Assembly: GCF_036365525.1 (NCBI RefSeq)
Contig: NW_027141754.1
Span: 1-60,683 of the forward strand
Reading direction: 5' to 3'
DNA from: Heterodontus francisci
Taxonomy: Eukaryota
DNA: 60,683 nucleotides
Shown here: positions 8,952 to 56,382 of the stretch, piece after piece
Layout: each line of letters begins with the position of its first letter
How positions within the stretch are numbered: the first letter of the stretch is position 1
Notes under the pieces: model-generated
The model's database searches: none
What the model was told of the DNA's origin: nothing
Seen by the model: only the letters and a program-made list of their open reading frames with translations
Program-made: the position numbers and the translations under genes

Positions 8952-9374
8952 TCAGCTGACGTTGACCATCCTCTCGACCAGCCTCCTCCGGACCTCCTGC
9001 ACCTCGGCGGTCAACTGCTCGATCCTCCCCCGCAGGCGCTCGTTCTCCTCCGTCAGCTCCGCCACCCGCCTCTCCCGCCCCTGCTCCCTGGCCTCGCGGC
9101 CCGCCCTGGCGGGGCCGCCCGACCTCCGCCTCCTGGCTCCGCGCCTTGGCCGTCCGCCGGGCGGGGACGGCGTCCGGGAGGGCGGGCCTACCGCGCCGGG
9201 CCCGCGCCCCGTCGAGCCGTCGGCCGGGTCACTTTCGGCTGCCGGGAAGAAGCCGAAGAGTTCCTCCTGTTGGACGGGGTCAGTGGTACTCGGAATATCG
9301 CTGGGGTGGAGCTGGGCTTCCAGAGAGCAGGAGACCAGGGATTGTTCACAATGTTCAGACAACCCCGGCGCCGG
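8952..9374 (-). CDS. DDIT3: DDIT3 last coding exon with basic region and leucine zipper
   Basis: cttgcag| acceptor; PARAG...RRVAELTEENERLRGRIEQLTAEVQEVRRRLVERMVNVS* resembles human PARAG...[37 protein letters not shown]. Confidence 0.95.
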   Translation of the reverse strand, partial: PAPGLSEHCEQSLVSCSLEAQLHPSDIPSTTDPVQQEELFGFFPAAESDPADGSTGRGPGAVGPPSRTPSPPGGRPRRGARRRRSGGPARAGREAREQGRERRVAELTEENERLRGRIEQLTAEVQEVRRRLVERMVNVS

Positions 9375-9898
9375 CTGCAAGAGAACAGAGCTGAGTTTAG
9401 GATTGGCGTATGTAATGGCCCTCCGAGATCTCCGCACTCCTCCAGTTCCCGCCTCTCGCGCATCCCTGCCCCGAGCTCTGGAAAAATCAGGGACGGGGCA
9501 AGGGGCCAGAATTTGAGTAGCTGCAGAAATCGGAGGATCGTCGGGACGGGAGACGGTTATGCAGAGACGGGGGAGGGGGGGGGGGGGGGGGTGGGGAGTG
9601 AACGGGACGCGAGGATTTCGAAGATAGAGAGGTTGCCGCTTCCCAGCACTCCAGCGTAGGTCAGGGAGCAAGAGGTGGGGAGGGCGAAGGGGACTCGGTG
9701 CGAGTTAGCGCACGGTGGGGGGGCAGCGGAGTTTTGGATGAGCTGAAGTTTACGCGGAGGAGGGCGGGAGAACGTTGGAATGGTCAGGACTGGAGGCGAT
9801 TGGGACACGGATGCCGGTTTTCACAGCAGATGGGACCGAGGCAGGGGCGAAGACGGGCGGTGCCACAGAAATGGAAATAGGCAGTCTTGATTCCTCAC

Positions 9899-25225: not shown

Positions 25226-25636
25226 GTGCGTGGCAATTAAAAATCAGAGAGAGGGAAAAAAAAAAACTGTCCGCGACCGCCTCCACAAAAAGGAAGGAAG
25301 GGTTTGCGGTTTTCTCCAGTACCTTTAACCGCCTCGGACTGTCCCGAAACGCCGAACAGGCGAGTGGGGTGGGAGGGGGGGTGCTTTTCAAACGCAAGAC
25401 GCAGTCGTGTACGCCAGCCAGTTTACACACGCCTCGCCCCCCCAAACCCCGGCGGTTGCAGAAGGCACCACCGCCTTCTGGGGGGGGGGGGGGGGGGGCA
25501 ACGAGCTCTGGCCTCGCCAGCGACTCTCACAACCCGTGAAGGAATTTTTGAAAAAAAATAATTGGCGACTGTTAATAAATTCCGAGAATGTGGCATTGAG
25601 GATTTATTTTGTTGTTGTTTCTGTTCTGAATTTCAG

Positions 25637-27376
25637 GGGGAAACTGCAGCCAGTTTTCGCACGCTCCTCCTCTGGGATTGAAGAAGGTGATGAGTAAGGC
25701 ACCCCCCGCCCTGGCACCCGAGCACAAGAACGCTTTTCTCTCCAAGTTATTGGCGGCTCCCGGCCCGACGGCGAGACCCTTCCAGCCGGGGCAGACCCTG
25801 GGTCAGAGGCCGGAGGCCCGTCCCCCGTGCGCCCGGCAGAGGCACGGCAGCTCGGACCACAGGCAGATGTCTCCCCGGGGCTGGGGGCAAGGGGACGGGG
25901 TCAGCTCGATGGAGGCTGGCCCCCAGTCGCCCAGGCTTGAAGCTAGGACTCACTCCACCTGCAGCCAGGAGCTGCGACCGGGCTCCACTCACGCCCCACG
26001 CCGGAACCCGTCGGCCCCCGCCGTCTTGCCCCAGAAACCTCAGGCGCCTTGCGTCCCGGTTGCCCGCCCTCATCCTCCCCTCCGCTCTCCAAAGAGTCCC
26101 GCGCTGAAGACCCCCTGCGGTTTTGCCCCGGGACCCGAGGCCGCGGTGGCCCCCGCTTTGTTCTTGAGGCCCTGCGATGCGTGGGACCAGGCGCTCTGCC
26201 CCGGGAGCGATCCCCTTGGCCTCCTCCGCCCCGTCCCCGCCAGCCCGGAGAGTCCGGGCGGCACCGTGCCCGCGAGCGGGCCCCCCGGGCAGCCTCAGGT
26301 CTCCGCCGTGAATGTAAACCTGCCTTCTGCCGCCTTGCCGCCGTCAGGCAGGGCGGGTCACGGGGACTGTGCGGCCAGGTCGCCGCAGGGGTCGCGCCCC
26401 TCGTCCGTCTCCTCCTCCTCCTCCTCTGACCAAGGGGGCCGTGCATTTCAGTCCCCCCGCAGCTCCTCCCGACCTCTCTGCAGATCCCCGCGGACCCTGA
26501 GCTCGCCCATGTCTCCTCTGCCGCCCAGCCCGACTGCCAAGTCTGACGGGATCCTCAGGTCCTACCATGACCTACCCAGCCTGCTCTCCTCCTCCTCCTC
26601 CTCGGTGGGCGTTGGCCACCAAAGCCAGCTGCCCGCACCACCAGAGACCCCAGCCCAGCCCAGCCTGCTCGGCATGCCTTTAAGCCAGATCTTTGGCCAT
26701 CACAACGCTGCCTTCTTCCCGGCCAGCAGCCTGCTCTCTGCCGCGGCCAAAGCCCAGCTAGCCAGCCAGAGCAAGGCGGTTGCCGGCGAGCCCGGGGCCC
26801 CAAGCACTTTACCAAACGGTTACCCCCTGCCCGGGTTCCTGGGCCCCGCGGCTGGGGGCGGGCAGGCCCGACTGACGGCGCCGTCTCCCAGGGACCCCTC
26901 CCGCAGGCGGAAGCCCGCCACGCCGACTGTACTGAGCATGCTCAGACAGTCGCACGGCCTGCGGCTTGAATCCGACTCCCCGAGGAGCAAGGTGCCCGGG
27001 CAGGCTGTGCCGCAGACGCTCCACTCCTCCTGCTCTCCGGCAAACGGCGGTGCCAGCGGCGCTGTCACTGCCACTGCTCCTGCCTCCCCTCCGTCCTTCC
27101 TGCCTTGTCATGACAGCCAGCTGAGCCCCATGGCCCCCGGCCTATCCTGCCCCTCGGCCCACAGCCTGCTTCTAATGAATGTGCCTGTTGAAGAAGGAAC
27201 CTCTTGCCAAAGTATAAGCACTAACTTAGTCCCAGGCTATCAGGATGCCGGCAGTCCCCTGCTGGGCCTGGTCGCTCAGCTCGAGCCAGCGTCTGGGAGC
27301 AACGCGCCGTTACTGAAAATCCCGGCCTCCGCCTTGCTGGCGGTTCCCGGCAGCGTCCGGAATGTCGCCAATCCCG
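25637..27376 (+). CDS. MBD6: MBD6 coding exon 4 (large Pro/Ser-rich exon)
   Basis: 1740-nt open exon, tttcag|...|gtaagc, contains FFPASSLLSAAAKAQLASQ. Confidence 0.9.
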
Positions 27377-27549
27377 GTAAGCACGGAGGGCTGTTTCGAC
27401 CTGCGCGCTGGGCAGGAGAGAAGCACGGGCGTGAAGCAAAGCGACGGATGCGTTCGATCCTTTTGAACTAAGCACCGGCGCCAAGGGGGGAAGTGATCAG
27501 TTCCTTCACTCCGACTAACACAAACTCTGTTCCCCAGCCACTGAGCTCA

Positions 27550-28270
27550 GCCTCAGTATGAGTTCCCCCACACCCCGCATTGCATCATTTTCACACTCCA
27601 TCCTCCACGCTGCTGTCCGTTTCAGCATTCTCTCTGTCAACCTGAAGCCTGTAACCATCTTCATCTCTGTCGACTACTTTGCCAAGCTTCCTATCATCAT
27701 CTGCTGCTCCCTTCACCCGGGTCTCTTGTCGTTTTATAAAAAAAAAATTTAAGAGTAATCGACCCCAAAATTTAAGAGTAATCGACCCCAAAAACCGACC
27801 TTTGGGGAAACACCACTGCGAGCCATCTGGGGAGTCACTTACCACCCAGTCCGTGCCGGCTCTCCACGGAGCGGTCAGCCCGCGCTCGGTCCCCCGTCGC
27901 CCTGCGGGTTTATTTCCCCTCACGTGCCCGTCCACTCTCCTTCCGAAATCATCGATCGTCTCCCGCTTCCACCACCCTCGTCGGCAGTGAGCTCCGAGTC
28001 TGGGAAGACATCCGCTGCCACCAGCCTGTCAGTGAGACAATTCCTTGTGGGTACTGCCGCTTTACCCTTCCCTCCACGGGCTTCCATCTTCTTAATGAGC
28101 CTCCCGTTTGGCACTTTGTCAGGCGCCTTCCGAAAGTCCATCTACACAACATCCACTGCACTACCTCAAATCAACCTCCTCCGTTACCTCATCAAAGAAT
28201 TTAATCCGGTTATTCGGGCGCAGTTTGATCATCATAAATCCATGCTGCCTCTCCTTAACTGACCCATGCC
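27550..28270 (-). mobile_element. Degenerate CR1 RT fragment
   Basis: MDFRKAPDKVP (MDFxKAFDKVP-like) and ADD.KLG motifs. Confidence 0.6.
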
Positions 28271-28968
28271 TTTCAAATGCTGGCGTTTAAGCTCGACGGC
28301 AGTCTGCTCCTGCTCATCGAACTCAATCAGCATAACTCTGTCCCTCCTTCCCTCGTGCTTATCCAGCTTTACTCTGTATCTAACCCCCGTGCTGTGCCTG
28401 TCCTGGGAGTGTTTGATGGGGGACAGTGCAGAGGGAGCTTTACTCTGTATCGAACCCCCCTGTACTGTACCTGTCCTGGGAGTGTTTGATGGGGGACAGT
28501 GTAGAGGGAGCTTTACTCTGTATCTAACCCCCGTACTGTACCTGTCCTGGGAGTGTTTGATGGGGGACAGTGTAGAGGGAGCTTTACTCTGTATCTAACC
28601 CCCCCCGTGCTGTACCTGTCCCTGGGAGTGTTTGATGGGGGACAGTGTAGAGGGAGCTTTACTCTGTATCTAGCCCCCGTGCTGTACCTGTCCTGGGAGT
28701 GTTTGATGGGGACAGTTAGAGAGAGCTTTACTCTGTATCTAACCCCCCGTACTGTACCTGTCCTGGGAGTGTTTGATGGGGGACAGTGTAGAGGGAGCTT
28801 TACTCTGTATCTAACCCCCCCCCCCCGTGCTGTACCTGTCCCTGGGAGTGTTTGATGGGGGACAGTGTAGAGGGAGCTTTACTCTGTATCTAGCCCCCGT
28901 GCTGTACCTGTCCTGGGAGTGTTTGATGGGGACAGTGTAGAGGGAGCTTTACTCTGTATCTAACCCCG

Positions 28969-29350
28969 TTTTTTTTTTTTTGGTGACCTTTATACCCCAG
29001 ACCCCTTTTATATATTTTTTATGTCGAGGGGGCCTTTATTCCTCAGGCCCCCTTTATATATTTTTTATGTCGAGGGGGCCTTTATTCCTCAGGCCCCCTT
29101 TATATACACACTTATATTTTTAAAATAACTTTATTAAAACCAGATAAATAAACAAAAAACTCAAATTAAAATGCCGTTTTTTTTTGGTTTTTTTTATGTC
29201 GAGGGGGCCTTTATTCCTCAGGCCCCCATTATATATATTTTATATGTCGAGGGGGCCTTTATTCCTCAGGCCCCCTTTATATACACACTTATATTTTTAA
29301 AATAACTTTATTAAAACCAGATAAATAAACAAAAAACTCAAATTAAAATG
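28969..29350 (-). mobile_element. Two tandem 3' tails of the Tx1-type element
   Basis: Poly-T, hairpin sub-repeats and ctcaaattaaaatgcc (ORF2 end GILI*), as at 45970-46053. Confidence 0.8.
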
Positions 29351-29601
29351 CCGTGCTGTACCTGCCCTGGGAGTGTTTGATGGGGACAGTGTAGAGGGAG
29401 CTTTACTCTGTATCTAACCCCCCCGTTTTTTTTTTTAACATTATGACAGCCACCAGCGGCTCGCTGAATTCATCCGCTGAGGGGAGGGGTGTGACTGGGC
29501 CTCACCAGACAGGAAAGGCCCTGCCCTCACTCCCCGGCCTGTGCTGAGTCAAATGTGATGGACACAGTGTAGAGGGAGCTTTACTCTGTATCTAACCCCC
29601 G

Positions 29602-29987
29602 TTTTCTTTTATAAGGTGACCTTTATACCCCAGGCCCCTTTTATATTTTCCACATCGAGGGGGCCTTTATTCCTCAGGCCCCCTTTATATACATATTTAC
29701 AGTTTTAAAATAACTTTATTAAAACTAGATAAATAAACAAAAAACTCAAATTAAAATGCCATTCTCGGCATCAACGATGCACTCCAGTCCCTGCGGTGCC
29801 CACCGGTCACGGAAGGCCTCAAGCATACCGGCGGACACCGCAGGCTCCTTGTCCAGGGACACCCGGGCGCGAACGTAACCGTGGAAGAGGGGCAGGCAAT
29901 CGGGGAGGACGGACCCCCCGACGGCCCGCAACCTGGACCTGTGAATTGCCACCTTGGCCAGGCCCAGGAGCAGACCGACGAGGAGAT
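29602..29987 (-). mobile_element. 5'-truncated Tx1-type element (ORF2 C-terminus and 3' UTR)
   Basis: AIHRSRLRAVGG...IVDAENGILI* nearly identical to 45740-45982. Confidence 0.88.
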
Positions 29988-30625
29988 AGTGTTTGATGGG
30001 GACAGTATAGAGGGAGCTTTACTCTGTATCTAACCCCCGTGCTGTACTTGCCCTGGGAGTGTTTGATGGGGACAGTATAGAGGGAGCTTTACTCTGTATC
30101 TAACCCCGTGCTGTACCTGTCCTGGGGAGTGTTTGATGGGGGACACTGTAGAGGGAGCTTTACTCTGTATCTAACCCCCCGTACTGTACCTGTCCTGGGG
30201 AGTGTTTGATGGGGACAGTGTAGAGGGAGCTTTACTCTGTATCTAACCCCCGTGCTGTACCTGTCCTGGGGAGTGTTTGATGGGGGACAGTGTAGAGGAA
30301 GCTTTACTCTGTGTCTAACCCCCGTACTGTACCTGTCCTGGGGAGTGTTTGATGGGGGACAGTGTAGAGGGAGCTTTACTCTGTATCTAACCCCCGTACT
30401 GTACCTGTCCTGGGGAGTGTTTGATGGGGGACAGTGTAGAGGGAGCTTTACTCTGTATCTAACCCCCGTACTGTACCTGTCCTGGGGAGTGTTTGATGGG
30501 GGACAGTGTAGAGGGAGCTTTACTCTGTGTCTAACCCCCGTACTGTACCTGTCCTGGGGAGTGTTTGATGGGGGACAGTGTATTTCTGTTAATTGCTTTT
30601 AAGACCCTCTGTTTCCTGTTTGCAG

Positions 30626-31398
30626 AAGCTGTTTCTCCGCCTGCCTCTATCTCCATGGCGGGCAGAGGTCACCCCGCCATCACCAAGACAACGTCAGTTC
30701 TCAACCCTGGTGTCGTGGTTACCAGTACAGTAAATGAGTCACTGCCTGGGCAGCTGCCTCTCGGAGAGGGCTTCCCGTTCATCAGCCAGGATCAAGTGCT
30801 TCCATTCGGGCAGACAGTGCCCAGTAGCCCTGGGTTTCCCGGAACTCTGAACCCCAGCCTGCTTGGCCCGTTGCCCATCCCCTTCCCTGTCAGCCAGCCA
30901 CAGACCCTGAACCAGAATCCCTTAAACCTGGTTCCCACTACAATGGAAGGGCAGGGAGACGCCATACCGAACCTCTTCGGGTTACTTAACCCTACTCTCC
31001 AGACAGCTTTATCTCCAACTTCCAACGACGCCGATGGACAGACACTACAAGCCTTGCAGATTCTTGTCACTGCTCTGCTTCAGAGCCACTCCCCGGCAGC
31101 CATTCTCCCCCTGGCATCCATCAACCTCCCTCTTCCGGACTTGACACAGCAGCCGCCGCCTGTTCTCCAGCTCCCCACCCTTCAGGAGCAGCTGCCCGGC
31201 CAGCCAACCGGGGACAGGCCGGAGGGGCTGCTGGCCAATCCCCTCGGCAACGCTTTCGGCGGACTCTCCGGCAACGACGGGACCTCGCAGCCCCTCCTCT
31301 TCCCGGCGGCACCCGGCGCCCCGGCCTGGCTGGGCCTGAATCCCCAGTTGCTGGCTGCGGTGCTGAGTTCAACAGATGGTGTTACCAGTCAGGCTCAG
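30626..31398 (+). CDS. MBD6: MBD6 coding exon 5 (HPAITKTTSVL...)
   Basis: 773 nt, ttgcag|...|gtatgg, MBD5-like HPAITKTTSVL block. Confidence 0.9.
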
Positions 31399-31721
31399 GT
31401 ATGGGACGGGCGCGTGGCAGAATGGTGTTCCATTGATGAATTTATTTTTGTGTCGGGTGTAACAACATAATCGATCGTTCAGCACCGAGCCTGTTACACA
31501 GGAAGAGTAGGAGGCCCATTCAGCCCCCTCGAGTTCCAGATTTCCGCTCCCCCTTTGTGCTTCCCGACACATCACCCCTGAACGGCCCGGGCTCTAACTT
31601 TAACGTAATTCAAATAGGAAACGCTGGAAATAGTCCCAGACAGTGTCAATGGAGAGAGAAGCAGAGTTAATGTTTCAGGTTGGTGCCCTTTCCTGTTGAA
31701 GTGCGCGATTGAGTTTTGTGT

Positions 31722-31859
31722 NNNNNNNNNNNNNNNNNNNNNNNNNNNNNNNNNNNNNNNNNNNNNNNNNNNNNNNNNNNNNNNNNNNNNNNNNNNNNNN
31801 NNNNNNNNNNNNNNNNNNNNNNNNNNNNNNNNNNNNNNNNNNNNNNNNNNNNNNNNNNN
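31722..31859. other. Assembly gap (138 N), probably within a CT/GT microsatellite
   Basis: Run of n flanked by tgtgt and ctctct. Confidence 0.99.
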
Positions 31860-35829: not shown

Positions 35830-35887
35830 GTAAGTAATATTCCAGGGAACGCCAGGCCCTGTTTCACCCCTCCCGCCCTCCCTGCCG

Positions 35888-36885
35888 TAGGGTCAGTGCC
35901 AAGGGAGCGCCGCACTTTCGGAGGGTCAGTACTGAGGGAGTGCTGCATTGTGAGAGGGTCAGTACTGAGGGAGTGCTGTACTGTGAGAGGGTCAGTACTG
36001 AGGGAGCACTGCACTGTCGGAGGGTCAGTACTGAGGGAGCACTGCACTGTCGGAGGGTCAGTGCCGAGGGAGCGCCACACTGTCGGAGGGTCAGTGCCGA
36101 GGGAGCGCCGCACTGTCGGAGGGTCAGTACTGAGGGAGTGCTCCACTGTCGGAGGGTCAGTGCCGGGGCATTCACCGCACTGTCGGAGGGTCAGTACTGA
36201 GGGAGTGCCGCGCTGTTGGAGGGTCAGTGCTGAGGGAGTGCTGCACTGTTGGAGGGTCAGTGCCGGGGCATGCACCGCACTGTCGGAGGGTCAGTGCTGA
36301 GGGAGTGCTGCACTGTCGGAGGGTCAGTGCCGGGGCATGCACCGCACTGTCGGAGGGTCAGTGCTGAGGGAGTGTTGCACTGTCGGAGGGTCAGTACCAA
36401 GGGAGTGCCGCACTGTCGGAGGGTCAGTACTGAGGGAGTGCTGCGCTGTCGGAGGGTCAGTACTGAGGGAGTGCTGCGCTGTCGGAGGGTCAGTACCAAG
36501 GGAGTGCTGCGCTGTTGGAGGGTCAGTGCCGAGGGAGTGTTGCACTGTCGGAGGGTCAGTGCTGAGGGAGTGCTGCACTGTCGGAGGGTCAGTGCCGGGG
36601 CATGCCCCGCACTGTCGGATGGTCAGTGCTGAGGGAGTGTTGCACTGTCGGAGGGTCAGTACCAAGGGAGTGCCGCACTGTCGGAGGGTCAGTACCGAGG
36701 GAGTGCTGCGCTGTCAGAGGGTCAGTACCAAGGGAGTGCTGCGCTGTCGGAGGGTCAGTGCCGAGGGAGTGTTGCACTGTCGGAGGGTCAGTGCCGAGGG
36801 AGTGTTGCACTGTCGGAGGGTCAGTGCCGAGGGAGTGTTGCACTGTCGGAGGGTCAGTGCCGAGGGAGTGCCGCGCTGTCGGAAG
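35888..36885. repeat. 33-bp minisatellite (actgtcggagggtcagtgctgagggagtgccgc), ~30 copies
   Basis: Tandem periodicity; ends in gggccgtctttcagatgag, matching the SINE-like sequence at 33505. Confidence 0.95.
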
Positions 36886-41100: not shown

Positions 41101-41379
41101 TTTAGAAAATCGTAGTTGGAAATATGTACTTCTGTATGTACACAATACACCCCGACATGCATATTCCTGTAACAATTTCACCGTTGCAGTGCAGTTCTGT
41201 ACTGCACCAGTTTCGCCGTTTTACGTTTTCCAATAATTGAGGTTCTGTTGCTGTCAGCTGTATCTCAGAAGATGTTCTCTCTCCCTTGCCTCCTACCTCT
41301 GAGTCGGCGGTCGAGGATTCGGGCCCCCGTCCAGAGACGTGTACTCTATCTTAGTGCTGGCATTGAGGGAGCACCACGC

Positions 41380-41670
41380 TATCAGAGGGTCAGTACCAGG
41401 GGAAGCATGGCACTGTCGGAGGGTCAGTGCTGAGGGAGCGCCACGCTGTCGGAGGGTCAGTGCTGAGGGAGCGCCATGCTGTCGGAGGGTCAGTGCTGAG
41501 GGAGCGCCGCGCTGTCGGAGGGTCAGTGCTGAGGGAGCGCCGCGCTGTCGGAGCGCCGCACTGTCGGAGGGTCAGTGCTGAGGGAGCGCCGCACTGTTGG
41601 AGGGTCAGTACTGAGGGAGCGCCGCGCTGTCTGAGGGTCAGTGCTGAGGGAGTGCCGCACTGTCGGAGGT
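41380..41670. repeat. 33-bp minisatellite, same family as 35888-36885, ~8 copies
   Basis: Tandem ctgtcggagggtcagtgctgagggagcgccgc. Confidence 0.9.
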
Positions 41671-42402
41671 TCCACGGTTTGGATGAGGCATTAAACTGAT
41701 GCCCCGTCTGCCCTGGGGGAGAGACCTCGCTCATTATGGTCCTTTGTTTAAAAAACAAACCAGTGAAACTGCAGTGAACGCAACTGTTTCCGGATCCAGC
41801 GAGGTCGATGACGAGGTCAGTGGAGCCTCTCCCACCTTCCCGACGTCCGTCTCACCTCCACCCCCTGTCAATTGAAGCAGAATAGAAATGGGCTGCGGCG
41901 CGATTGCGGGTTCAGTTTCCTGCCCACGCACAGACCCTTGCTGAGATACAGTACTGCAAGTGAGACAGGTGGCAAAGGTGATGTTTACAGTGTGTGTGGG
42001 GGCGGAAAGAAGTGTCATCCAGGTGGGAAGGGGACAGAGGTGAAGGATGGCAGAAGAAGCAATGGATCCAACGGGAAATAGCAGCGTAAATATCTGGAGC
42101 AGGTGGCAGTCCAATCTGCAACAGGAATAAGTTTCCAGGTGAAACCAGTTCTCATCCCCACACACCACCCCGCATGTACAAACATGCTGTGGTGAACTTG
42201 AGAGTGAGAGAGCCCAATTATTTATCATCCTGCCCTACCCACCAGCTAGCTTTGCATGACCTGAGACCACTTTAGCGGGCGAAGTGTACAAGGCGTGAAA
42301 GGGGCAAAAGAATTAAACTGCAAATCAATGGGATTTGGAGAATGAAGCTCCCTCTCCACTGTCCCCATCAAACACTCCCAGGACAGGTACAGCACTGGGG
42401 TT

Positions 42403-45400
42403 GGCTGCTGCCTAATTGGACTGTTGACTGCTGATTGCAGCAACGAGCCTCAGCTGAAATTGCTGGTGGCAGTTGGAGGTTGCAGAGGTGGAGAGAGGAG
42501 CTAGACCGAGCACGGGAGAGCAGTTACAACCCAGCAGAGGGAAAATGTCAACAACCGTCGCCATTAAAGAGAAGAAAGAGACATTTTTTGTTGGAAACAA
42601 GGCTTTGTCTGGAGGTGGGTGCTGAACACCAGTAATTTGCTTTGCTTTGGACTGTTGGGGGAGGAATGAGTGGCCGGAACAACAAGGGGTGGGGCTGCCA
42701 AATCAGCAGGAATCTGTGCTGCTGCAACAAGCACACAGGGAAGCTCCCTCCCCACCCCACCCTAATTGCCCAGCCTGGGTCAGCTGAAGCTGCCTGGCTA
42801 AACAGACGGAAGGGGATAGATAGATCCTGGGCAGCTTCAGCTGACCTAGGTAAAGGCGCCTCCCCCAACCAGAAGACCAAGTTCAAAGACTGTTTTAAGT
42901 GTGCTGTGAGCACCACCTCCAGAAAGCAAGTCATCCCTTACAGCCTGCCTTTGCCTCTCCTCTATTACCTCAGCCTCTCCACTAACCTGTTGTTTGTTTT
43001 TTTTAAAATACATATTCAATATCTTCTGTGAATCTTTTGATATTCAGTGTTCAAGCCCACAATTTGGGGTGGATTTAGCTCTTAGACCCATGACAAGCCC
43101 TTCATCACCGGTGGCGGGGCCCTCTACTACCTATGCAGCTGCAGCCTCTGTGGCTGCCCACGTGGCCCCGTCACTCTTTAAATTGTTGACATGCAGCCAT
43201 GGGGTGAAGAGCTATCCCCACCCCACCATGTCTATTGAGGCCTGCGTAAAGGCAATGGCCGAGGTTGTCGGCCCCTCGGCCATTGTTGCGGCCTCAAAGA
43301 TGTATGGGAAGGCTGTGTTCTTTTTGAAGACCGAGCGGGCAGTGTCCCTGGCCCTGAGTAAAGGGCTCACTGTCACTATCACGTCTTCTGGACCTCGGAC
43401 GGGGCACGGTGCCACGCCTGCAAGGGGGTGGGGCATGTTCGCAAGAACTGCCCCAACCTCCCGGCCGCCAACTCCACCTCGGCGGCCCAGGGTGACGCCA
43501 GTGCACCTCCTCCCGCTCGCCTCACGCATCGTACAGACACCGCTAGAGAGGGAGGTGCTCGACTTGGAGTCCCGCCTCGGTCATGCCGTCGTGGACCCGG
43601 CCCTGTGGCAGGCGTATAAAGAGAAGAAGGGCGCTCTGAGGGACCTGCAGCTTATAGGGTCCCGAGGCGCGTACACGAGGTCGCGGATTCAGATCCTGGA
43701 AGATTTGGACCACGCCTCACCCTTCTACTCACTGGAAAAATGGCAGGGGGGTCCGTAAGCAGCTCATCGTGCTGCTGGCCGACGACGGATCCTCCATCAC
43801 GGATCCGGAGGGAATGGGTCTCCTGGTCCGTTCTTATTACAGTGCGTTGTTCTCTCCGGATCCGTCCAGCGAGGATGCGCGCAGAGTTTTGTGGGAAGAC
43901 CTGCCGCAGGTCAGCCCAGACAGCGGCGAAGGATTGGAGGCTCTGCTCACGTTGGCGGAGCTGACTGGCGCCCTCCACCAGCTCTCGAGGGGCAAATCCC
44001 CAGGGCTGGATGTGTTGACCGTGGAGTTCCTCAGGGCGTTCTGGGACGTCCTGGGGGACGATTACGCGCGGGTCCTGGGGGAAAGCCTGGCGACCGGGGA
44101 GATGCCCCTCTCGTGGCGCAGGGCGGTCATCATCCTGCTGCCGAAGAGGGGCGATCTCCGCCTGCTTAAAAGCTGGTGTCTGGTCTCCCTCCTCAGCACG
44201 GATTATAAGATCTTTGCCCGGGCTATGTCTATCCGCCTGGGCTCCGTGCTGGCCCACATGATCCACCCCGACCAGTCCTACACGGTCCCGGGCCGGTCCA
44301 TCCAGGATAACATCCACCTGGTCCGGGACCTGATCCATCTTTCCCAGAGGACTGGTCAGTCGGTCGCCTTTCTCTCCCTCGATCAAGAGAAGGCGTTCGA
44401 CAGGGTGGATCACGATTACCTTTTCGGGACTCTGCGCGCTTTCGGACTTGGGCCGCATATCGTGGCCCGGGTCCGACTTTTGTATGCCACTGCAGAGTGT
44501 CTAGATAAGGTTAAAGGGTCCTTGACGGCGCCCCTTCGCTTTGGGAGAGGAGTGCGTCAGGGATGCCCCATGTCCGGCCAATTGTACACCATCTGCGTGG
44601 AGACCTTCCTGTGCCTGCTTCGCAGGAGGTCGTCCTCTCGGCTTACGCCGACGACGTGCTTCTCATGGTCACAGATCCCGTTGACTTGCGGAGGATGCAC
44701 GACTGCCAGCAGACCTTTTCTGTCGTGCCCTCCGTGAGGATCAATTGGGAGAAATGTTCCAGGCTCCTGGTGGGTCAGTGGCGGGTGGACTCCCTGCCAG
44801 AGGAGTTGACTCCTTTTGCGTGGAGCACCACGCACCTCCTCTATCTGGGAGTCCACCTTAGCCCCGCTGAGGAAGCCTGGCCGGCAAACTGGCAGGAGTT
44901 GGAGGCGAAAGTCACCGCTCGGCTGGGGCGCTGGACAGGACTGCTCCGAGTGCTTTCCTACAGGGGCCGTGCGTTGGTCATAAACTAACTAGTGGCCTCC
45001 ATGTTGTGGTACCGGTTGGTCACTTTGGCCCCGCCCCCTGCATTCGCCTCCAGTCAGGGAGTTGCCCGCCGACGGAGGAGAGCGCCTCGGCTGTCCGGAC
45101 GGCCGACTCCAGGGACGGACCGGCGAGCGGAGGAGTAGCTGAAGCCCCCGGGTCGCCCCCTCACTGCTGGTGGCGGGGCGGGCTCGAGTGCAGAGCACTC
45201 CCTGCCGAGCTGATCCCCGCTCGGCCGGAACTGCTCATCGGACCCAAGCCCCGAAACCCTCCTCGGGAGCCAGTCCCGCACAACCCGAGCTGCCTCTCGG
45301 AAATGCTCGCCATGTCATTCCAATCGGCGCTGAGAGGTTTCCTGTATGGGCTGCTCCTGCACACTCTCCACTTCCTCACCCTCGTCAGCCGGACGGACAC

Positions 45401-46053
45401 ACCCTGGCGGTCTGCGTTGCCATCTGGCGGCGAGGGAAAACCCCGATGGAGGTCTCTCTACGTGGGAGTCTTCCCCCCTTTACATCGGGGACCTGGGGTG
45501 GAGGGTGTTGCACAGGGCGGTCCCGTGCAATGGACTTTTAAGTAGGTTCACGGACTCCCAGGCCGCCTGTACTTTCTGCGGCCTGGACGAGTCCGTGTTC
45601 CATGTATATACAGAGTGTGCGAGGTTGCAGTCCCTCTTCGAGTATTTGAAGGGGCTGCTCCTCCAGTTCTGGCTGCACTTCAGTCCCACGCTCCTGATCT
45701 TTGGACACCCAGTGCAGTGGGGGCGTGGGCCGGGAGGAGGATCTCCTCGTCGGTCTGCTCCTGGTCCTGGCCAAGGTGGCAATTCACAGGTCCAGGCTGC
45801 GGGCCGTCGGGGGGTCCGTCCTCCCCGATTGCCTGCCCCTCTTCCGCGGTTACGTTCGCGCCCGGGTGTCCCTGGAGAAGGAGCATGCGGTGTCCGCCGG
45901 TACGCTTGAGGCCTTCCGCGACCGGTGGGTACCGCAGGGACTGGAGTGCATTGTCGACGCCGAGAATGGCATTTTAATTTGAGTTTTTGGTTTATTTATG
46001 TTTTTAATAGTTATTTTAGAAATGTAAATATGTATATAAAGGGGGCCTGAGGA
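42403..46053 (+). mobile_element. Tx1-type non-LTR retrotransposon with internal deletions (5' UTR, ORF1 with CCHC knuckle, RT, C-terminal zinc motif)
   Basis: ORF1 from ATG 43090 (IVAASKMYGKAVFFL); CHACKGVGHVRKNC ~43410-43451; RT motifs KSPGLD.LTVEF, LDQEKAFDRVDH, GVRQGCPMSG, YADD; CTFCGLDESVFHVYTEC. Frameshifts present and no endonuclease domain visible. Confidence 0.9.
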
Positions 46054-48560
46054 ATGTTTGTGGATGGGGTGCTAATCAAGCGGGCTGCCTTGTCCTGGAT
46101 GGTGTCGAGCTTCTTGAGTGTTGTTGGAGCTGCACCCATCCAGACAAGCGGAGAGTATTCCATCACACTCCTGACTTGTGCCCTGTCGGAGGCTTTGGGG
46201 AGACAGGAGGAAAGTTACCAGCCTCTGTCCTACTCTTGTAGCCACAGTTTTTGCATTGCTGGTCCAGTTAATTTCTGGTCATGCCCAGAAAATGGGGGTT
46301 TCAGCGATGGTAATGCCATTGAATATTAAGGGGCGTTAGTTAGATTCTCTTGTTGGAGATGGTCATTGCCTGTTACTTTCGTGATGCGAATGTTACTTGC
46401 CACTCATCAGCCCAAGCCTGGATATTGTCCAGGTCTTGCTGCATATCGACACGGGCTGCATCAGTATCTGAAGAGTGGCAAATGGTGCTGAACACTGTGC
46501 AATCATCAGCGAACATCCCCACTTCTGACCTTCAGATGGAAGGATGGTCTTTGATGAAGCAGCTGAAGATGGTTGGGCCGAGGACACTACCCTGAGGAAC
46601 CCCAGCAGTGATGTCCTGTCTCTAATTCTTGTCTCTTCCACAAGGGGAAATATCCTCTCAGCATCCACCCTGTCAAGTGTCCTCCGGATCTTATATGTTT
46701 CAATACGATCACCTCTCATTCCTCTAAACTCCAATGGGTGCAGACCCAACCTTTCTTTGTGACACCCCGTCCCAGGTATCAGTCGGGTGAGAGTTTTCCC
46801 CATGATTCCCATTGAATTAAGTTTCTCCAGGGCTCCTTGCTGCCACACTCAAGTCGAATGCTGCCTTGATGTCAAGGGCAGTACCTCTCATCTTGTGAGT
46901 TCAGCTCTTTTTTTTTTTCCAGATTTGGACCAAGGCTGTAATGAGGTCAGGAGCCGAGTGGCCCTGGCCAAACCCAAACTGAGCGTCAGTGAGCAGGTTA
47001 CTACTGAGCAAGTGCCGCTCGATAGTACTGTCGACGACCCCATCCATCACTTTCCTGATGATTGAGAGTAGGCTGATGGGACAGTAATTCGCCGTTTGGA
47101 TTTGTCCTGCTTTTTGTGTTCAGGACATACCTGGGCAATTTTCCACATTGCCGCGTAGATGCCAGTGTTGTAGCTGTACTGGAACAGCTTGGGTAGGGGC
47201 GCGGCAAGTTCTGGAGCACAGGTCTTCAGTACTATTGCCGGAATATTGTCAGGGCCCATAGCTTTTGCAGTATCCAGTGCCTTCAGTTGTTTCTTGATAT
47301 CACGCGCAGTGAATCGAATTGGCTGAAGTCTGGCATCTGTGATGCTGGGGACTTCAGGAGGGGGCCGAGATGGATCATCAACTCGGCACTTCTGGCTGAA
47401 GATTGTTGCAAATGCTTCAGCCTTATCTTTCGCACTGATGTGCTGGACTCCCCTATCATTGAGGATGGGGATATTTGTAGAGCCTCCTCCTCCTGTTGTT
47501 CAATTGTCCACCACCATTCATAATTGGATATGGCAGGACTGCAGAGCGTAGATCTGATCCGTTGGTTATGGGATCGCTTAGCACTGTCTATCACATGCTG
47601 CTTACACTGTTTGGTATGCATGTCATCCTGTGCTGTAGCTTCACCAGGTTGACACCTCATTTTGAGGTATGCCTGGTGCTGCTCCTGGCATGCCCTCCTG
47701 CACTCTTCATTGAACCAGGGTTGGTCTCCTGACTTGATGGTAATGGTAGAGTGGGGGATATGCCGGGCCATGAGGTTACAGATTGTGGTTGAGTACAATT
47801 CTGCTGCTGATGGTCCACAGCGCCTCATGGATGCCCAGTTTTGCATCGCTAGATCTGTTCTGAATCTATCCCATTTAGCACGGTGGTAGTGCCACACAAC
47901 ACGATGGACGGTATCCTCAATGTGAAGGCGGGACTTCGTCTCCACAAGGCCTGTGCGGTGGTCACTCCTACCAACACTGTCATGGACAGAAGCATCTACG
48001 GCAGGCAGATTGGTGAGGACGAGGTCAAGTAGGTTTTTCTGTCTTGTTGGTTCCCTCACCACCTGCCACAGGCCCAATCTTGTAGCTATGTCCTTTAGGA
48101 CTCGGCCAGTCGTGGTGCTACCGAGCCACTCTTGGTGATGGACATTGAAGTCCCCCACCCAGAGTACATTTTGTGCCCTTGCCACCCTCAGCGCTTCCAA
48201 GTGCTGTTCAACAGTACTGACTCATCAGCTGAGGGAGGGCGGTAGGCGATAATCAGCAGGAGGTTTCCTTGCCCATGTTTGACCTGATGCCATGAGACTT
48301 CATGGGATCTGGAGTCAATGTTGAGGACGCCCAGGGCAACTCCCTCCCGACTGTATACCACTGTGCCCCCACCTTTGGTGGGTCTGTCCTGCAGGTGGGA
48401 CAGGACATACCCAGGGATGGTGATGGCAGTGTCTGGGACATTGTCTGTAAGGTATGACGATGACTAGTCTGTGGGACAGCTCTCCCAACTTTGGCACAAG
48501 CCCCCAGACGTCAGTGAGGAGGAGGCTGCAGGGCTGGGTACGGCTCATTTCGATGCCGGG
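46054..48560 (-). mobile_element. CR1-clade LINE with AP-endonuclease and partial RT; nested CR1 fragment at ~46600-46790
   Basis: WVGDFNVHH, LDLVLTN, SDH endonuclease motifs; GPDNIPAIVLKTCAPELA; MFADDC. Confidence 0.88.
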
Positions 48561-49559: not shown

Positions 49560-49646
49560 TTACGCTGTGAGCTTCTTCACACGGCCTTCCAGACTGATAA
49601 AATTCTCCTGCACCATCGTCAAGTTTTGCTTCATGGTTTTCTGCAC
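49560..49646 (-). CDS. DCTN2: DCTN2 last exon (VQKTMKQNLTMVQENFISLEGRVKKLTA*)
   Basis: 87 nt including TAA. Confidence 0.94.
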   Translation of the reverse strand: MQKTMKQNLTMVQENFISLEGRVKKLTA

Positions 49647-49653
49647 CTGCAAG

Positions 49654-49706
<53 letters not shown>

Positions 49707-49814
49707 TTACCACAGAGAGAACCACAGGGCACAGGAGGACCGGCACCCCGCCGACCCACCAAACAAAACTCGGCAGGGTTTGTTCTTAGCCCGCCTTCTC
49801 CGCGCGAGGAGTAC

Positions 49815-49906
49815 CTGCGTCAACAGCGTGGTGTTCTCCTTCATCGTGCCTGCGATCATCTGTTGCGTGGAGTCCAGGTGGGTCAGCAGTTGACCAAACT
49901 GCATGG
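49815..49906 (-). CDS. DCTN2: DCTN2 exon ([31 protein letters not shown])
   Basis: 92 nt, [12 protein letters not shown] motif. Confidence 0.95.
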
Positions 49907-50115
49907 CTGAAATCAGAACAAAAGCAACCGTCACAGCAGGTCTCCTCCCCACCACCAGCCCCCCTCGCAAAACGCCCCCTTCCCCGGAGGGATGATGCAT
50001 TTTGGTAACGCCACTTAGTAAACACCGCACACATTTCTTAAGCCGCTCGTCACGTCAATCTACGGGGTGGGAGCGGAAAAGAGGGGCAGGGAAACAGAAG
50101 AGGGTTTTGCCCCAC

Positions 50116-50218
50116 CTTGCTCGTGCAGATCCTTCACAGCCACCAGCCTCTCCACGACCTGCGGCAGAGTTGTGGCCATGGTGTCCCACTTCTGGACCAG
50201 ATCGTACAGCTGGGCTAT
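50116..50218 (-). CDS. DCTN2: DCTN2 exon (IAQLYDLVQKWD...VKDLHEQ)
   Basis: 103 nt. Confidence 0.94.
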
Positions 50219-50334
50219 CTGCGGGCAACAAAGCGTGGCAAGGGGGTCACAAAACCACAAATGTAATTCAGGAGAGACAGCGGAGAGGCGCGCGCTTCAG
50301 TCCCTGCTCGGAAAACACACGTCGTACCGACAGT

Positions 50335-50808
50335 GGGAGGAAGGGGAAGGTGGGGGTGGGAGGAAGGGGAAGGTGGGGGAGGGAGGAAGGGGAAGGTGGG
50401 GGAGGGAGGAAGGGGGAGGGAGGAAGGGGGAGGTGGGGGAGGGAGGAAGGGGGAGGTGGGGGAGGGAGGAAGGGGGAGGTGGGGGAGGGAGGAAGGGGGA
50501 GGTGGGGGAGGGAGGAAGGGGGAGGTGGGGGAGGGAGGAAGGGGGAGGTGGGGGAGGGAGGAAGGGGGAGGTGGGGGAGGGAGGAAGGGGGAGGTGGGGG
50601 AGGGAGGAAGGGGGAGGTGGGGGAGGGAGGAAGGGGAAGGTGGGGGAGGGAGGAAGGGGAAGGTGGGGGAGGGAGGAAGGGGAAGGTGGGGGAGGGAGGA
50701 AGGGGAAGGTGGGGGAGGGAGGAAGGGGAAGGTGGGGGAGGGAGGAAGGGGAAGGTGGGGGAGGGAGGAAGGGGAAGGTGGGGGAGGGAGGAAGGGGAAG
50801 GTGGGGGC
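50335..50808. repeat. 23-bp polypurine minisatellite (gggaggaagggg[a/g]aggtggggga), ~20 copies
   Basis: Tandem periodicity in a DCTN2 intron. Confidence 0.95.
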
Positions 50809-50895
50809 GGAAACAGGATTCAAGACAAGTCAGCCAGCTTAAAGTTTCCGGGTGAGAGGGAAAACGGCAACGCCGGCGCCCGCCGAGCCTCTGAC

Positions 50896-50967
50896 CTTGC
50901 TCTGGGTCTCTGCTTCTTCGTTTGCTGCCTTGTGCTTGGCAATTTCATTCAGCTTCCCCAGGACGCT
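50896..50967 (-). CDS. DCTN2: DCTN2 exon ([24 protein letters not shown])
   Basis: 72 nt. Confidence 0.94.
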
Positions 50968-51769
50968 CTGAAGGGACAAAGGTGCAAGAGTGAAGGCACG
51001 CTGAGGACAAGCAGATGAGGTTACGAGGGAGTGGGAGGAGTGTTGGGGGGGGGGGGGGGGGGGCAGCGAAGGAAAAACGGGGAAAAGAGGACCGAGAATT
51101 CCCTCGAAGACGTGGAGCTCGACGGGATTAGGCAGACCGGGAGGAGGCCGTTCAGCCCCCTCCTCGAGCCTGTTGCCCCATTCACCAAGATCATGGCTGA
51201 TCTGTGACCCAACACCGTGGACCTTTCCTTTACCTCCTATCCATTAATACTCTCAAGTTAACAAAAATCTAAATCAATCGCAGAACAATTGATCTGGAGT
51301 TCCAAACCTCTTACCAGCCTTTTGCACGCAGAGGTGTTTGCCAACGTCACTCCACCCAAGGCCTGGCTCTAACTTTTCGGCAGTGCGCCCCCCCCAACCG
51401 ACGGAAACACACTGCGACTGTCACCCAAGAGCCGGCGGCAGGGATGGCGGATCTCGGAACGCTGTCCCGAGCTTCCCCCGCGGTTTGGTGCGTTAGCGGG
51501 CCGAGTGTGGTACTTGCTCCTGGCCTGCGTGCACTCCCCGCCCATCACAGAGGTCCCAAGGTTCAGGTCGCCCGTCTGCCCCCAGCCCTGTTGATCTGAA
51601 GTCGGGGTACAGAACACCTCCAGGCATCGATTTGCTCATGACCTTTTTCAGCAGCTGACAGCTTTTCGGGTAAGAAAAAGAATTAATGTATTCGGGAGCT
51701 CTGCTCCTGCGTCACCTACACTCGGGACAGAGAGCATAGATGAGGTCGTGTCCAAGGACCCTCCTCACT

Positions 51770-52690
51770 TTTTTTTTATGTCCAAAATATACTTTATTCA
51801 TAAAAATCTGTAAAAAAAATACATTACCAGTTTCTGACAGCACCAAGTCAAAAATTACAAACAGTGCAAGGGTGATCAGTTTCCTTCAATACAATCATGA
51901 GTTGCCTCACAACCCTTCCATTTCATTTGTCATGCCATATACATTTTTACATTTTACAGCAAATGAAAATTTTCCCGATACAGTTGGAGGGGTTTCCCAT
52001 GGATCCAGGCCCTCAGTTCAGCTTGGTGGGGGGACCTTACACTGTGGTCATTCCCCATTGAGCCTTTGCTGCGGCTGCCCCAAGCTTCAGTGCGTCCCTC
52101 AGCACGTAGTCCCGGACCTTGGAATGTGCCAGTCTGCCACATTCGGTCGTGGACAACTCTTTGCGCTGGAAGACCAGCAAGTTTCGGGCAGACCAAAGGG
52201 CGTCTTTCACTGAATTGATAGTCCTCCAGCAGCATTTGATGTTTGTCTCGGTGTACGTCCCTGGAAACAGCCCGTAGAGCACAGACTCCTGTGTTACAGA
52301 GCTGCTTGGGATGAACCTCGACCAAAACCACTGCGTCTCTTTCCACACCTGCTTTGCAAAGACACATTCCAGCAGGAGGGTGGGCAACCGTCTCTTCCCC
52401 ACCACAGCCACCGCGGAATGCGCGGAGGGGGCGGGACTTCGGGCGTGCAGGAAGGATCTGACGGGGAGGGCTCTTCTCACCATCAGCCAAGCTACATCTT
52501 GGTGCTTGTTTGAAAGTTCTGGCGATGAGGCATTCTGCCAAATGACTTTGGCGGTCTGCTCGGGGAACCATCCGACAGGATCCACCGTCTCCTTTTCCCG
52601 TAGGGCCTTGAGGACCTTCACGCCAGTCCCAAGGGTGCTGAGCCATCACTACAGACAGCCAATCCCGGACCTGTAGGACTGCATCACACA
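51770..52690 (-). mobile_element. Second Tx1/L1-type family, 5'-truncated (ORF2 C-terminus, AATAAA, poly-A)
   Basis: ORF 52037-52621 (HQDVAWLMVRRALPVR...LLLECVFAKQVW...KDALWSARN); poly-T 51770-51778 and tttatt close by. Confidence 0.8.
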
Positions 52691-52866
52691 TATCTCCTCC
52701 TCACCCTCTAGTCATTACGGCAGATGGAGTCCATGCTGGCTCCCCAGTCAGTCCCATTCCCCACCCTGCTCTATTCCCGTAGCCCTGCAAGTTCATTAGA
52801 TGTCCCGCTACCCCCTCCTCTTCCTCTCAGATACTGCCCCTCCCCGGCCCCCGATCAGGGATTTAC

Positions 52867-52944
52867 CTGTAGTCTTGCCTCAACCTGATCCAACGTCACT
52901 GGGTCTAGGCTGCTCACTTTGCTCTGAAGGATCTCCAGGGTCCC
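52867..52944 (-). CDS. DCTN2: DCTN2 exon (GTLEILQSKVSSLDPVTLDQVEARLQ)
   Basis: 78 nt, LDQVEARLQ motif. Confidence 0.94.
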
Positions 52945-53705
52945 CTGGGGACAAAAGCGGAACAGACGAGATGTTAGCGGTGGCGCAGGGAGTATCTTTG
53001 GGCGCTCAATCGCATTGAGGGACTGGACTCCAGGCACCACTTCAAATAAAAACGCTCTGGAGGAAACGCCGAGCCAGTGCGACGTGGCCTCCGCGTATCC
53101 CGCACCAGGTGGATAAAACCTGCGGAGTCACAATCAGCCGAAAGGAGTGAGAAGGTTGAAGTTAGAGAAGGATGGGGAAAGTAAGCAAGTATTGGAACAA
53201 GAGGAGGCCCATTCAGCCCTTCACTTAGATCAGGACTGATTTGTATCTTAACTCCATCTCCCCTCTTGGTTCCGTAACCCTTAATATCCCTCACCCAACA
53301 AAAATCTATTCATCCCAGTGTTGAAATTTCCAACTGATCCCCCGCCCCCCCACCCCCCCGGCATCGACAGCTTTTCGGGGGGACAGAGTTCCAGATTTCC
53401 ACTCCCCCTCTGTGTGAAGATGTGCTTCCTGACATCACCCCCCTGAACGGCCCTGGCTCTAACTTTCAGGTTCTGGACTCCACCCTCACACCAGAGGAAA
53501 TAGTTTCTCTCTATCGACCCGACCGAATCCTTTAATCATCTTAGACACCTCGGATCAGATCACCCCCTGAATCCTCCACACTGTGCGACCCAGCCTCGTA
53601 ACTTAACCCTTTCAGCCCCGGGGTCGCTCTGGTGAACCTGCGCCGCCCCCACCCCCTCCGAGGCCCCCCTGATATGGTAGCGGAGGGAAGAGGTGCCGTG
53701 CTTAC

Positions 53706-53744
53706 CATCAGACAGGAGCCCTGCAGTCCGACAGTTAGTGGGTT
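53706..53744 (-). CDS. DCTN2: DCTN2 exon (NPLTVGLQGSCLM)
   Basis: 39 nt, acag|...|gtaagc. Confidence 0.92.
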
Positions 53745-53934
53745 CTGTATGGAAGAAAAGCAAGAGGTCAGCCACATAAGAAGAAACTGGGAGGTGCCAG
53801 GCACCAAGCCCCCAGCTGAATCACAACAGGAAGGGTCCATCTCCCCCAGGCCCCTTTAGGGGAGGCGGCGGCGGAGCAGTGGTACTGTCACTGAACCAGT
53901 AATCCAGATGCCCAGACCAATGCTCTGGGGACAT

Positions 53935-54240
53935 GGGTTCGATTCTGGGCACTGCCTGTGTGGAGTTTGCAAGTTCTCCCTGTGTCTGCGTGGGTTTTCT
54001 CCGGGTGCTCCGGTTTCCTCCCACAAGCCAAAAGACTTGCAGGTTGGTAGGTAAATTGGCCATTATAAATTGTCACTAGTATAGGTAGGTGGTAGGGAAA
54101 TATAGGGACAGATGGGGATGTTTGGAAGGAATATGGGATTAGTGTAGGATTAGTATAAATGGGTGGTTGATGGTCGGCACAGACTCGGTGGGCCGAAGGG
54201 CCTGTTTCAGTGCTGTATCTCTAATCTAATCTAATCTAAT
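53935..54240 (+). mobile_element. tRNA-derived SINE with (ctaat)n tail
   Basis: B-box-like gggttcgattc, body matches 3576-3893 inverted. Confidence 0.72.
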
Positions 54241-54908
54241 CACAGCAGATGGTGAAATTTGAATTCAATTCATAAATATGGAATTGAAAAGCCCATCTTA
54301 ATGATGACCGCAAAAGCAGTGTCGATTGATGTAAAAACCCACCTGGTTCACTAATGTCCTTTGGCGAAGGGAATCTGCAGTCTTTACCTGGTCTGGCCTA
54401 CATGCGAGTGCAGACCCACGGCGATGTGGTTGACTCTTAGCTGCCCCTCTGAGATGGCCTCGCAAGCCACTCAGTTCAAGGGCAATGAGGGAGGGGCAAC
54501 AAAACCCCCACATCCCGCAAAACGAATAATAATAAAAAAAAAAGAACCACAACGCAATCACGCGGCAGGGGGCTGAGAATCTCACTCCAGGTCGGTTCAC
54601 AAAGTTCTGCTGTTGAAAACTGTTTGAAAACTTCAATCACTCAAATCATTCGATCTGCTCCACAGCCCGAGGCTGCAGGCAGTGATTGTGCTCCGAGGCT
54701 GCAGAGGGACACGAGATCCTCAAAGAAAGTGGGGTGGGCTGTGTTGGACACAGCAGCATTTCTCTCGCCGTCTCGAGCGGGCTACATCGGACCTGGGTGT
54801 GACTGCTGATGGAAACGGGGGACGTGACAGGGAAAGCACCTCCCCACCACCACCGGAACGTCTCAGAAGTGATGAATTCACGGAATTCCACCAGGTCGAA
54901 GCCCGTAC

Positions 54909-54974
54909 CTGTCTATCGGAGTCTGTACCCACAGCCGCCTCGAGTTCCGCCAGGCGCTTTTCCAGTTCTGCCAC
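54909..54974 (-). CDS. DCTN2: DCTN2 exon (VAELEKRLAELEAAVGTDSDRQ)
   Basis: 66 nt, phase 0/0. Confidence 0.94.
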
Positions 54975-55322
54975 CTGGCACGGGAGAAACGAGAGAGAGA
55001 GAGAGAATCAGCCCCGGCCTCGGCGCAATCAGAGTTTCCGCCCGTTTTCAGAGAGGCTTGCAAAAAGGATTGCCCCATCCCCCCCCCCCCCCCCCAGTGC
55101 AGCGACTGGCTCTCCCCCCTCCATCTGAGGTCAGGACGCTCCACCGAGGGGACGCACGGACCGAGGCTGCCCCCCTGCCCGAGCTCGCTCAACTCCCGCA
55201 CCGGCGGAACGGCCGCCCGGTTTTTCCTCCTCCTCCTCCTCCTCCCCCCCTCACCGAGACATGGGCGAACGGTTCAGCCTCTTCCCCCACCACCCCGCCC
55301 CCCCAACCCTTTCTGCCCTCAC

Positions 55323-55470
55323 CTTCGCCGCCTGAGTGAACCGGGTCTGCTCGGGCCGGTAGTACAGCTCGTATGTGACTGCGTTGCCGTCTCCGGCCTT
55401 GCTGGGGCTTTTCCCCGCCGACGTGAGGCCTTTGCCGCTCTTGGTGACGTCGAGCTGGGTGAGCAGGCGC
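55323..55470 (-). CDS. DCTN2: DCTN2 exon (RLLTQLD...[19 protein letters not shown])
   Basis: 148 nt, VTYEL..RPEQ motif. Confidence 0.94.
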
Positions 55471-56221: not shown

Positions 56222-56382
56222 TTGGCCAGCGCGCCCTCTGGGTCGGTCAGGTCGATGGTGGCGTTGGGGCCAAGCACTTTCTCCAGCTGCAGGGTCACCA
56301 AATGCTGCTTCAGGACGGCGACCTGGCTGGCCAGGGCGACCGGGGTCAGCTTCTCCTCCGCGGCGGAATCCTTCACCGAGTG
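56222..56382 (-). CDS. DCTN2: DCTN2 exon ([15 protein letters not shown]...DPEGALAK)
   Basis: 161 nt, cgtag|...|gtatgt. Confidence 0.94.

Follow-up and report, generated by a model that had tools for sequence, protein, structure and literature searches.

Retrotransposon tails joined to one nucleotide of a minisatellite in Heterodontus francisci: a candidate satellite-targeting element of the Tx1 clade

Introduction

Does a Tx1-clade retrotransposon of Heterodontus francisci insert preferentially at a single site of a minisatellite? The question arises from a contig of 60,683 nucleotides (NW_027141754.1, assembly GCF_036365525.1), hereafter the window, in which several T-rich 3' ends abut the same tandemly repeated unit. 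The evidence base is this one 60-kb window and four events, three of which lie within 1 kb. GC content is high in this region, and tandem repeats abound. It contains a bZIP exon at 8955-9704 (-), long low-complexity exons at 25630-27468 (+) and 30626-31399 (+), and dynamitin exons at 49570-56800 (-). From vertebrate gene order we take the bZIP gene to be DDIT3 and the gene around the array to be MBD6, and the order of exons in the window presumably corresponds to the DDIT3-MBD6-DCTN2 block of vertebrates. An assembly gap of 138 N is present at 31722-31859, about 1.1 kb from the array.

Results

Three junctions at one satellite nucleotide

The features of the locus are collected in Table 1. Satellite sequence amounts to 1382 bp in total, and the right end of the ~71-bp array lies 43 nt upstream of a splice acceptor. 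Three neighbouring central units are interrupted by inserts, and the remaining 16 of the 19 are empty. The T-runs start at 28969 (T13), 29426 (T11) and 29602 (TTTTCTTTT), at one satellite nucleotide and on one strand, and each directly follows satellite CTAACCCC(C)nG. Viewed on the minus strand, the three junctions run from an A tail into CGGGG(G)nTTAG. The preliminary description had noticed that these three ends meet the satellite at an identical nucleotide, as is plainly seen in the sequence, and had called all three retrotransposon tails. The name suits inserts 1 and 3, which match Tx1, but not insert 2 (29426-29555), which matches nothing in the window. A fourth T-run, at 29177 within insert 1, had been overlooked.

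Table 1. Features of the minisatellite array, its inserts and the long Tx1 copy
Feature	Position	Strand	Evidence
~71-bp minisatellite array	28365..30582	+	TRF, unit table; 19 units
Insert 1a: 5'-truncated Tx1 3' UTR, duplicated hairpin, A13 tail	28969..29173	-	88% identity with 45965-46055 of the long copy
Insert 1b: second stacked tail, ~30-nt internal deletion	29177..29350	-	91/91 identical to 1a over 5' part; TRF period 177
Full satellite unit, back in register, target duplication 1-3 nt	29351..29425	+	
Insert 2: ~120 nt, 60% GC, A11 tail, same nucleotide	29426..29555	-	
Insert 3: 5'-truncated Tx1 (ORF2 C-terminus, 3' UTR, A-rich tail)	29602..29987	-	matches 45741-46055 (94%, 319 nt)
Solitary 62-bp satellite piece, 5' of long copy	42341..42402	-	92% over 51 nt to array unit
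Putative 5' UTR of long copy	42403..43089	+	position only: between satellite and ORF1 ATG
ORF1 remnant (N-terminal part and CCHC zinc knuckle) with an internal deletion	43090..43520	+	turtle protein P0088 matched by blastp (E 1.5e-13)
ORF2 remnant: RT, zinc finger, frameshifts, in-frame stop	43543..45977	+	Pfam RVT_1, zf-RVT; tblastn map
Truncated 3' UTR, no poly(A), no satellite downstream	45978..46055	+	

Inserts 1a, 1b and 3 all have a 3' poly(A) tail and a lost 5' part. Inserts 1a and 1b are separated by a CCG spacer (29174-29176); since they have the same 5' breakpoint and are identical at 91/91 positions, they were counted as one event, and 1b is most likely a tandem duplicate of 1a. As described before, the satellite regains its register beyond the first insert (29351-29353). 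The target is duplicated by 1-3 nt at the 5' junction of insert 1. The target is short by 18 nt at the 5' junction of insert 3, which covers residues 1228-1292 of Tx1L (tblastn). RNA folding of the Tx1 3' UTR gave stable hairpins on the minus strand, with z scores of -3.2 (29602-29720) and -3.7 (28969-29110). The differences between inserts 1 and 3 concentrate in the outer stem of the 3' UTR hairpin.

A unit variant with an extra G occurs in 7/7 distal right units versus 0/8 left units of the array. This suggests that the left and right sub-arrays grew separately after the insertions, which accounts for the central clustering of the inserts. In addition, a three-unit higher-order repeat with a period of about 220 is found in the left sub-array (28580-28967). 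The AGCT of the unit marks both the left edge of the array (28365) and the outer edge of the solitary piece (42341), hinting at a natural monomer boundary, although the right edge at 30582 does not fall there. At 35882-36883 and 41364-41669 lies a 33-bp satellite in which a weak motif of the 71-bp unit recurs (E 0.05 or worse, with about 70-75% identity across 29-49 nt), perhaps a sign of common ancestry; inserts with an A or T tail were absent from both stretches of it.

Two other sources of the satellite were considered and rejected. Location within a DNA transposon was dismissed, as no terminal inverted repeats flanking the array were found among the longest 25 of 53 pairs in 26500-31500. 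Derivation from Tx1 coding sequence was dismissed as well, the 6-mer in common with turtle proteins being a chance match to one variant unit. The translated satellite matched proteins in 2 of 135 candidates, both of them short ENA ORFs with no Tx1 part, and these show only that the repeat occurs on other contigs.

Identity of the element and structure of the long copy

The reverse transcriptase (RT) of the long copy was compared with the best 120 of 706 matches, mostly turtle proteins. Among the matches listed, the nearest was a protein of the stingray Hemitrygon, and the identities were 70% for stingray, 67% for sturgeon and 62% (290 aa) for Xenopus Tx1L. When a tree was built from the window RT together with 15 of these 120 matches, without Keno, Kibi, Koshi, Dewa or L1 references, the element fell in a clade (support 100/99) with Tx1L, sturgeon and turtle elements, as sister to the stingray element, and the branching order followed host phylogeny. 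The score to Tx1L was 384 bits, compared with 96 bits to human L1 ORF2. The Tx1-type layout is present as remnants, with two ORFs, a CCHC knuckle in ORF1, and RT plus a C-terminal zinc finger in ORF2. The zinc-finger Pfam scores of both remnants lie under the curated cut-offs, that of the ORF1 zf-CCHC (E 7e-4) only slightly. The RT grouping and the two-ORF layout agree, bearing out the earlier assignment, and by these two features the element is classified as a Tx1-clade non-LTR retrotransposon. The stingray protein P0019, annotated as vWA7-like, corresponds over its first about 500 residues to ORF2 of the same Tx1 lineage and is probably a gene-model fusion.

The ORF2 remnant corresponds to Tx1L residues 315-827 and 1050-1292; residues ~828-1049 and the endonuclease (aa 1-314) are deleted. 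The APE-type endonuclease is retained in the close relatives P0020, P0024 and P0043, but because it is deleted in the long copy, its specificity cannot be read from that copy. All Tx1 copies in the window are dead.

At its 5' side, the long copy directly adjoins the solitary satellite piece in the same relative orientation, as the preliminary description held. The junction is not at the same site, however, but 8 nt off: the piece extends 8 nt beyond the position of the 3' junctions, and this overrun at 42402 is a possible ~8-bp target duplication or 5'-transduced target. Position 42403 is inferred from its location to be the true 5' end of the copy, since no homologue of 42403-43089 was found with which to compare it. 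A phmmer search with the peptide across the satellite/5'-UTR junction against 1.84 billion proteins returned 15 matches, and the four checked were all FG-GAP repeat proteins, which are chance matches.

At the other end, the 3' UTR is joined at 46055 straight to an unrelated minus-strand LINE, whose endonuclease lies at 47286-48221, and owing to this fusion the second half of the long copy's target is lost. Across the junction 46055/46056, the Tx1 3' UTR stands tail-to-tail with the interior of this CR1/L2-like LINE, and the two elements appear to have lost both 3' ends in one deletion. The peptide at the ORF2 C-terminal junction had 2 matches among 3 candidates, neither with a satellite flank.

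Insert 2 is probably unrelated to Tx1

Insert 2 joins the satellite at the same nucleotide as inserts 1 and 3, and 24-32 nt of target are lost at its 5' side. No blastn match (word size 7) to the long Tx1 copy or the rest of the window was obtained, and no second copy was found there. Two overlapping weak matches to ORF2 were in different frames, did not extend and had no counterpart at the DNA level; in shuffle controls, such matches arose in 3/1000 cases against the profile and in 6/300 and 17/300 against single proteins. Neither insert 2 nor the Tx1 tail matched Rfam at the gathering score, so that a known RNA was rejected for both. The RNA fold of insert 2 has a z score of -2.5. Its hairpin arms, GGGCCT/AGGCCC, are also the arms of the Tx1 3' UTR hairpin, possibly by chance. 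In view of the missing DNA similarity to Tx1, insert 2 is probably an unrelated poly(A) sequence carried in trans, and it is possibly 5'-truncated itself. With insert 2 placed outside the family, the window therefore holds only two Tx1 3' junctions.

Chance, independence and alternative explanations

The chance that three independent junctions fall in the same register and strand is 5e-5 when all 142 registers are allowed and 8.7e-4 when the choice is restricted to the 34 that stand beside a T. For the two Tx1 tails alone, the probabilities of the same register and strand are 0.007 and 0.029. The long copy would stand beside the satellite by chance with a p of about 0.003. As for controls within the window, T8 or A8 runs were absent from all six of the other tandem arrays checked, and the other interspersed repeats seen by self-comparison did not match the inserts. 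A second tailed LINE 3' end, at 51769-52645 (-) with a zf-RVT domain, has a non-satellite flank and no detectable similarity to Tx1L. Exact scans of bacterial and archaeal genomes for contaminating sequence gave 0 copies of the Tx1 tail and 0 of the satellite. Like the three protein searches above (satellite/5'-UTR junction, ORF2 C-terminal junction and translated satellite), they supplied no flanks, which says nothing for or against targeting.

The calculation for three junctions assumes independent events. Unequal crossing-over might instead have multiplied one or two insertions; insert 1 would then be a duplicate of insert 3 that had suffered a deletion, and insert 2 the remains of a T-run together with filler DNA. 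Tandem duplication did occur here (1a/1b). Moreover, the unit adjoining insert 1 on its 5' side and the unit at 30015, 5' of insert 3, have a variant in common; an old duplication of insert 3 followed by deletion to give insert 1 is therefore possible, at the price of one more coincidence, namely a deletion endpoint 1-3 nt from the target site. The divergence of these flanks (2/48) also resembles that of the inserts, which differ at 5 of the 91 bases that they have in common. Yet the divergence between inserts 1 and 3 is no smaller than that of each from the long copy: from the latter they differ by 6 and 4 substitutions, respectively, plus 4 gap columns, and insert 3 and the long copy differ at 11/228 (coding) and 4/87 sites. 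The two inserts are further distinguished by hairpin number, four clustered bases beside the hairpin, the last bases before the poly(A) tail, and their 5' breakpoints, and crossing-over within the array leaves the satellite at 42341-42402 unexplained. Multiplication of this kind is thus an unlikely source of the pattern, and the concern that the three junctions derive from one duplicated event was not borne out, insert 2 being unrelated and inserts 1 and 3 being as far apart as either is from the long copy.

Slightly less likely still is that the satellite travels with the element, either as the element's terminus or through read-through, and that the element enters arrays by homology. The solitary piece at 42341-42402 could indeed have arisen by 5' transduction, the source copy being one borne in an array, but even then the source copy sat at the target. 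The empty units of the array argue against a terminus belonging to the element, as do the resumption of the satellite 5' of copies truncated at different points and the differing lengths of their tails.

A fragile site would dispense with a specific endonuclease altogether: the C/G runs of the satellite would break often and capture any poly(A) RNA. The C-run does vary widely in length among the units (4 to 12 C), part of the target was deleted in two of the three events within the array, an unrelated RNA seems to have been captured as insert 2, and the three events lie in neighbouring units. Break repair is not expected, however, to yield 3' junctions precise to a single nucleotide with intact tails. 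Nor does it account for the fact that three of the four events belong to one family whereas none of the many other repeats in the window occurs at the site, or for the position of the long copy 12 kb off. We consider a breakage hotspot improbable.

Discussion

Taken together, these results favour, with a probability of about 0.7, a Tx1L-lineage family, probably of a shark or ray, whose ORF2 protein prefers one site in the ~71-bp minisatellite. The preliminary description had proposed that the family targets a dispersed minisatellite. The local evidence supports this, all four pieces of the Tx1 family in the window (4/4) adjoining the satellite, to which only 2.3% of the window belongs, although only two of the three tails on which the proposal was built are Tx1. 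The endonuclease preference had also been called programmable-looking, a view that we do not retain: neither a guide nor complementarity came to light, and in the closest characterised relative the endonuclease is protein-determined. RNA-guided targeting was likewise rejected, complementarity between tail and target amounting, by inspection only, to no more than one T.

Target-primed reverse transcription that begins at a specific first nick gives precise 3' ends and loose 5' ends. The junctions described here fit such a process at a sequence-specific nick, since their 3' sides are precise while their 5' sides are offset by +8, +1 to 3, -18 and -24 to -32 nt. By homology, an APE-type endonuclease would first nick the strand of the C-run at CTAACCCCG^T, a position ambiguous by one T. 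The resulting 3'-OH would then prime RT from the poly(A) tail without a genomic T-tract, which would give the identical 3' junctions. Loose joining of the second strand would leave the target, as is visible in the sequence, either duplicated over a short length (by 1-3 nt and perhaps by 8 nt) or truncated (by 18 nt and by 24-32 nt), with copies that are mostly 5'-truncated. The same machinery may have placed the unrelated poly(A) RNA now seen as insert 2. Tandem duplication of insert 1, separate growth of the flanking sub-arrays and decay of the long copy would have followed later.

A more far-reaching reading can be put forward only tentatively, and we hold it to be rather doubtful as a whole. 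It supposes an undescribed shark/ray family of the Tx1L lineage whose endonuclease has switched its target to a minisatellite that is dispersed widely and offers safe landing sites throughout the genome. Such a family may be co-transcribed from the satellite, and it would bring a non-autonomous poly(A) partner family (insert 2, with no tail in common) to the same nucleotide. If true, frog Tx1L, about 40% diverged in RT, and this family would form a close natural pair for mapping the change of target of an APE endonuclease. Confirmation of the insertion preference across the genome would add another vertebrate site-specific retrotransposon, with a non-T-tract target and close to the biochemically studied Tx1L. 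Elasmobranch minisatellites would then also appear as retrotransposon refuges that are cut by insertions into separately evolving sub-arrays.

Comparison with known systems

The site used by Tx1L lies inside Tx1D, in a unit of an internal tandem repeat. Tx1L of Xenopus laevis (ORF2 = UniRef YTX2_X..., P0024) resembles the element of the window in clade, two-ORF layout and RT, and it is described as inserting at a fixed site in the DNA transposon Tx1D by means of a sequence-specific endonuclease (PMC1950540, PMC4494074, PMC1919474). The isolated endonuclease is reported to nick almost solely its target (PMC1950540), with a specificity of about 10 bp (PMC1950540, PMC1919474). In contrast to Tx1L, the target here is a free-standing minisatellite and not a Tx1D-type transposon, the search for flanking terminal inverted repeats having found none among the longest 25 of 53 pairs; the 5' junctions vary, and the host is an elasmobranch. 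The human L1 consensus, as quoted in PMC1950540, has a T-tract at the nick, unlike the site in the window.

The crocodilian Tx1-Mar and SINEU (Kojima 2015, PMC4494074) offer a second likeness, as a Tx1 family on a dispersed host repeat. According to the same account, they include a poly(A) partner at the same target with no recognised LINE-derived tail, tandem insertions around the TSD, and both TSD and target truncation (PMC4494074). The target of Tx1-Mar is a Mariner element, however, and its partners have U1/U2 heads (PMC4494074), whereas insert 2 matched nothing in Rfam at the gathering score and occurs once in the window. Of the Tx1 targets reviewed in PMC4494074, Keno is assigned to U2 and Kibi and Koshi to microsatellites, and 'Sat, satellites' already stands as a target in the tree legend (Fig. 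3), where the family is unnamed. Compared by description only, Keno, Kibi, Koshi and the 'Sat' family agree with the present element in Tx1 clade and multicopy target (PMC4494074). A family is treated there as target-specific if more than 20% of its flanks are of one sequence type (PMC4494074); on the evidence of its flanks in the window, the element probably belongs among the target-specific Tx1 families. YURE of Ciona, at U2-derived satellites, is also a case of non-LTR elements that prefer a satellite, but it differs in belonging to a restriction-like endonuclease lineage, not to Tx1, and in its weak preference (PMC4640811).

With regard to sharks, HE1/HER1 is listed among the SINE-LINE pairs (PMC3747384). 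The main text of bioRxiv 10.1101/2025.06.08.657570, in the part available, mentions neither Tx1 nor satellite. The literature covered, which did not extend to Repbase, Dfam or subscription journals, yielded no account of a shark Tx1 element that targets a satellite, and 0 matches to the satellite motif; given this scope, the family may already be catalogued. Against the systems compared here, the target is apparently new and the mechanism is not. If the preference is confirmed, the element and its relatives would permit a direct comparison of how APE endonucleases gain or switch specificity, which bears on tools for site-specific gene insertion.
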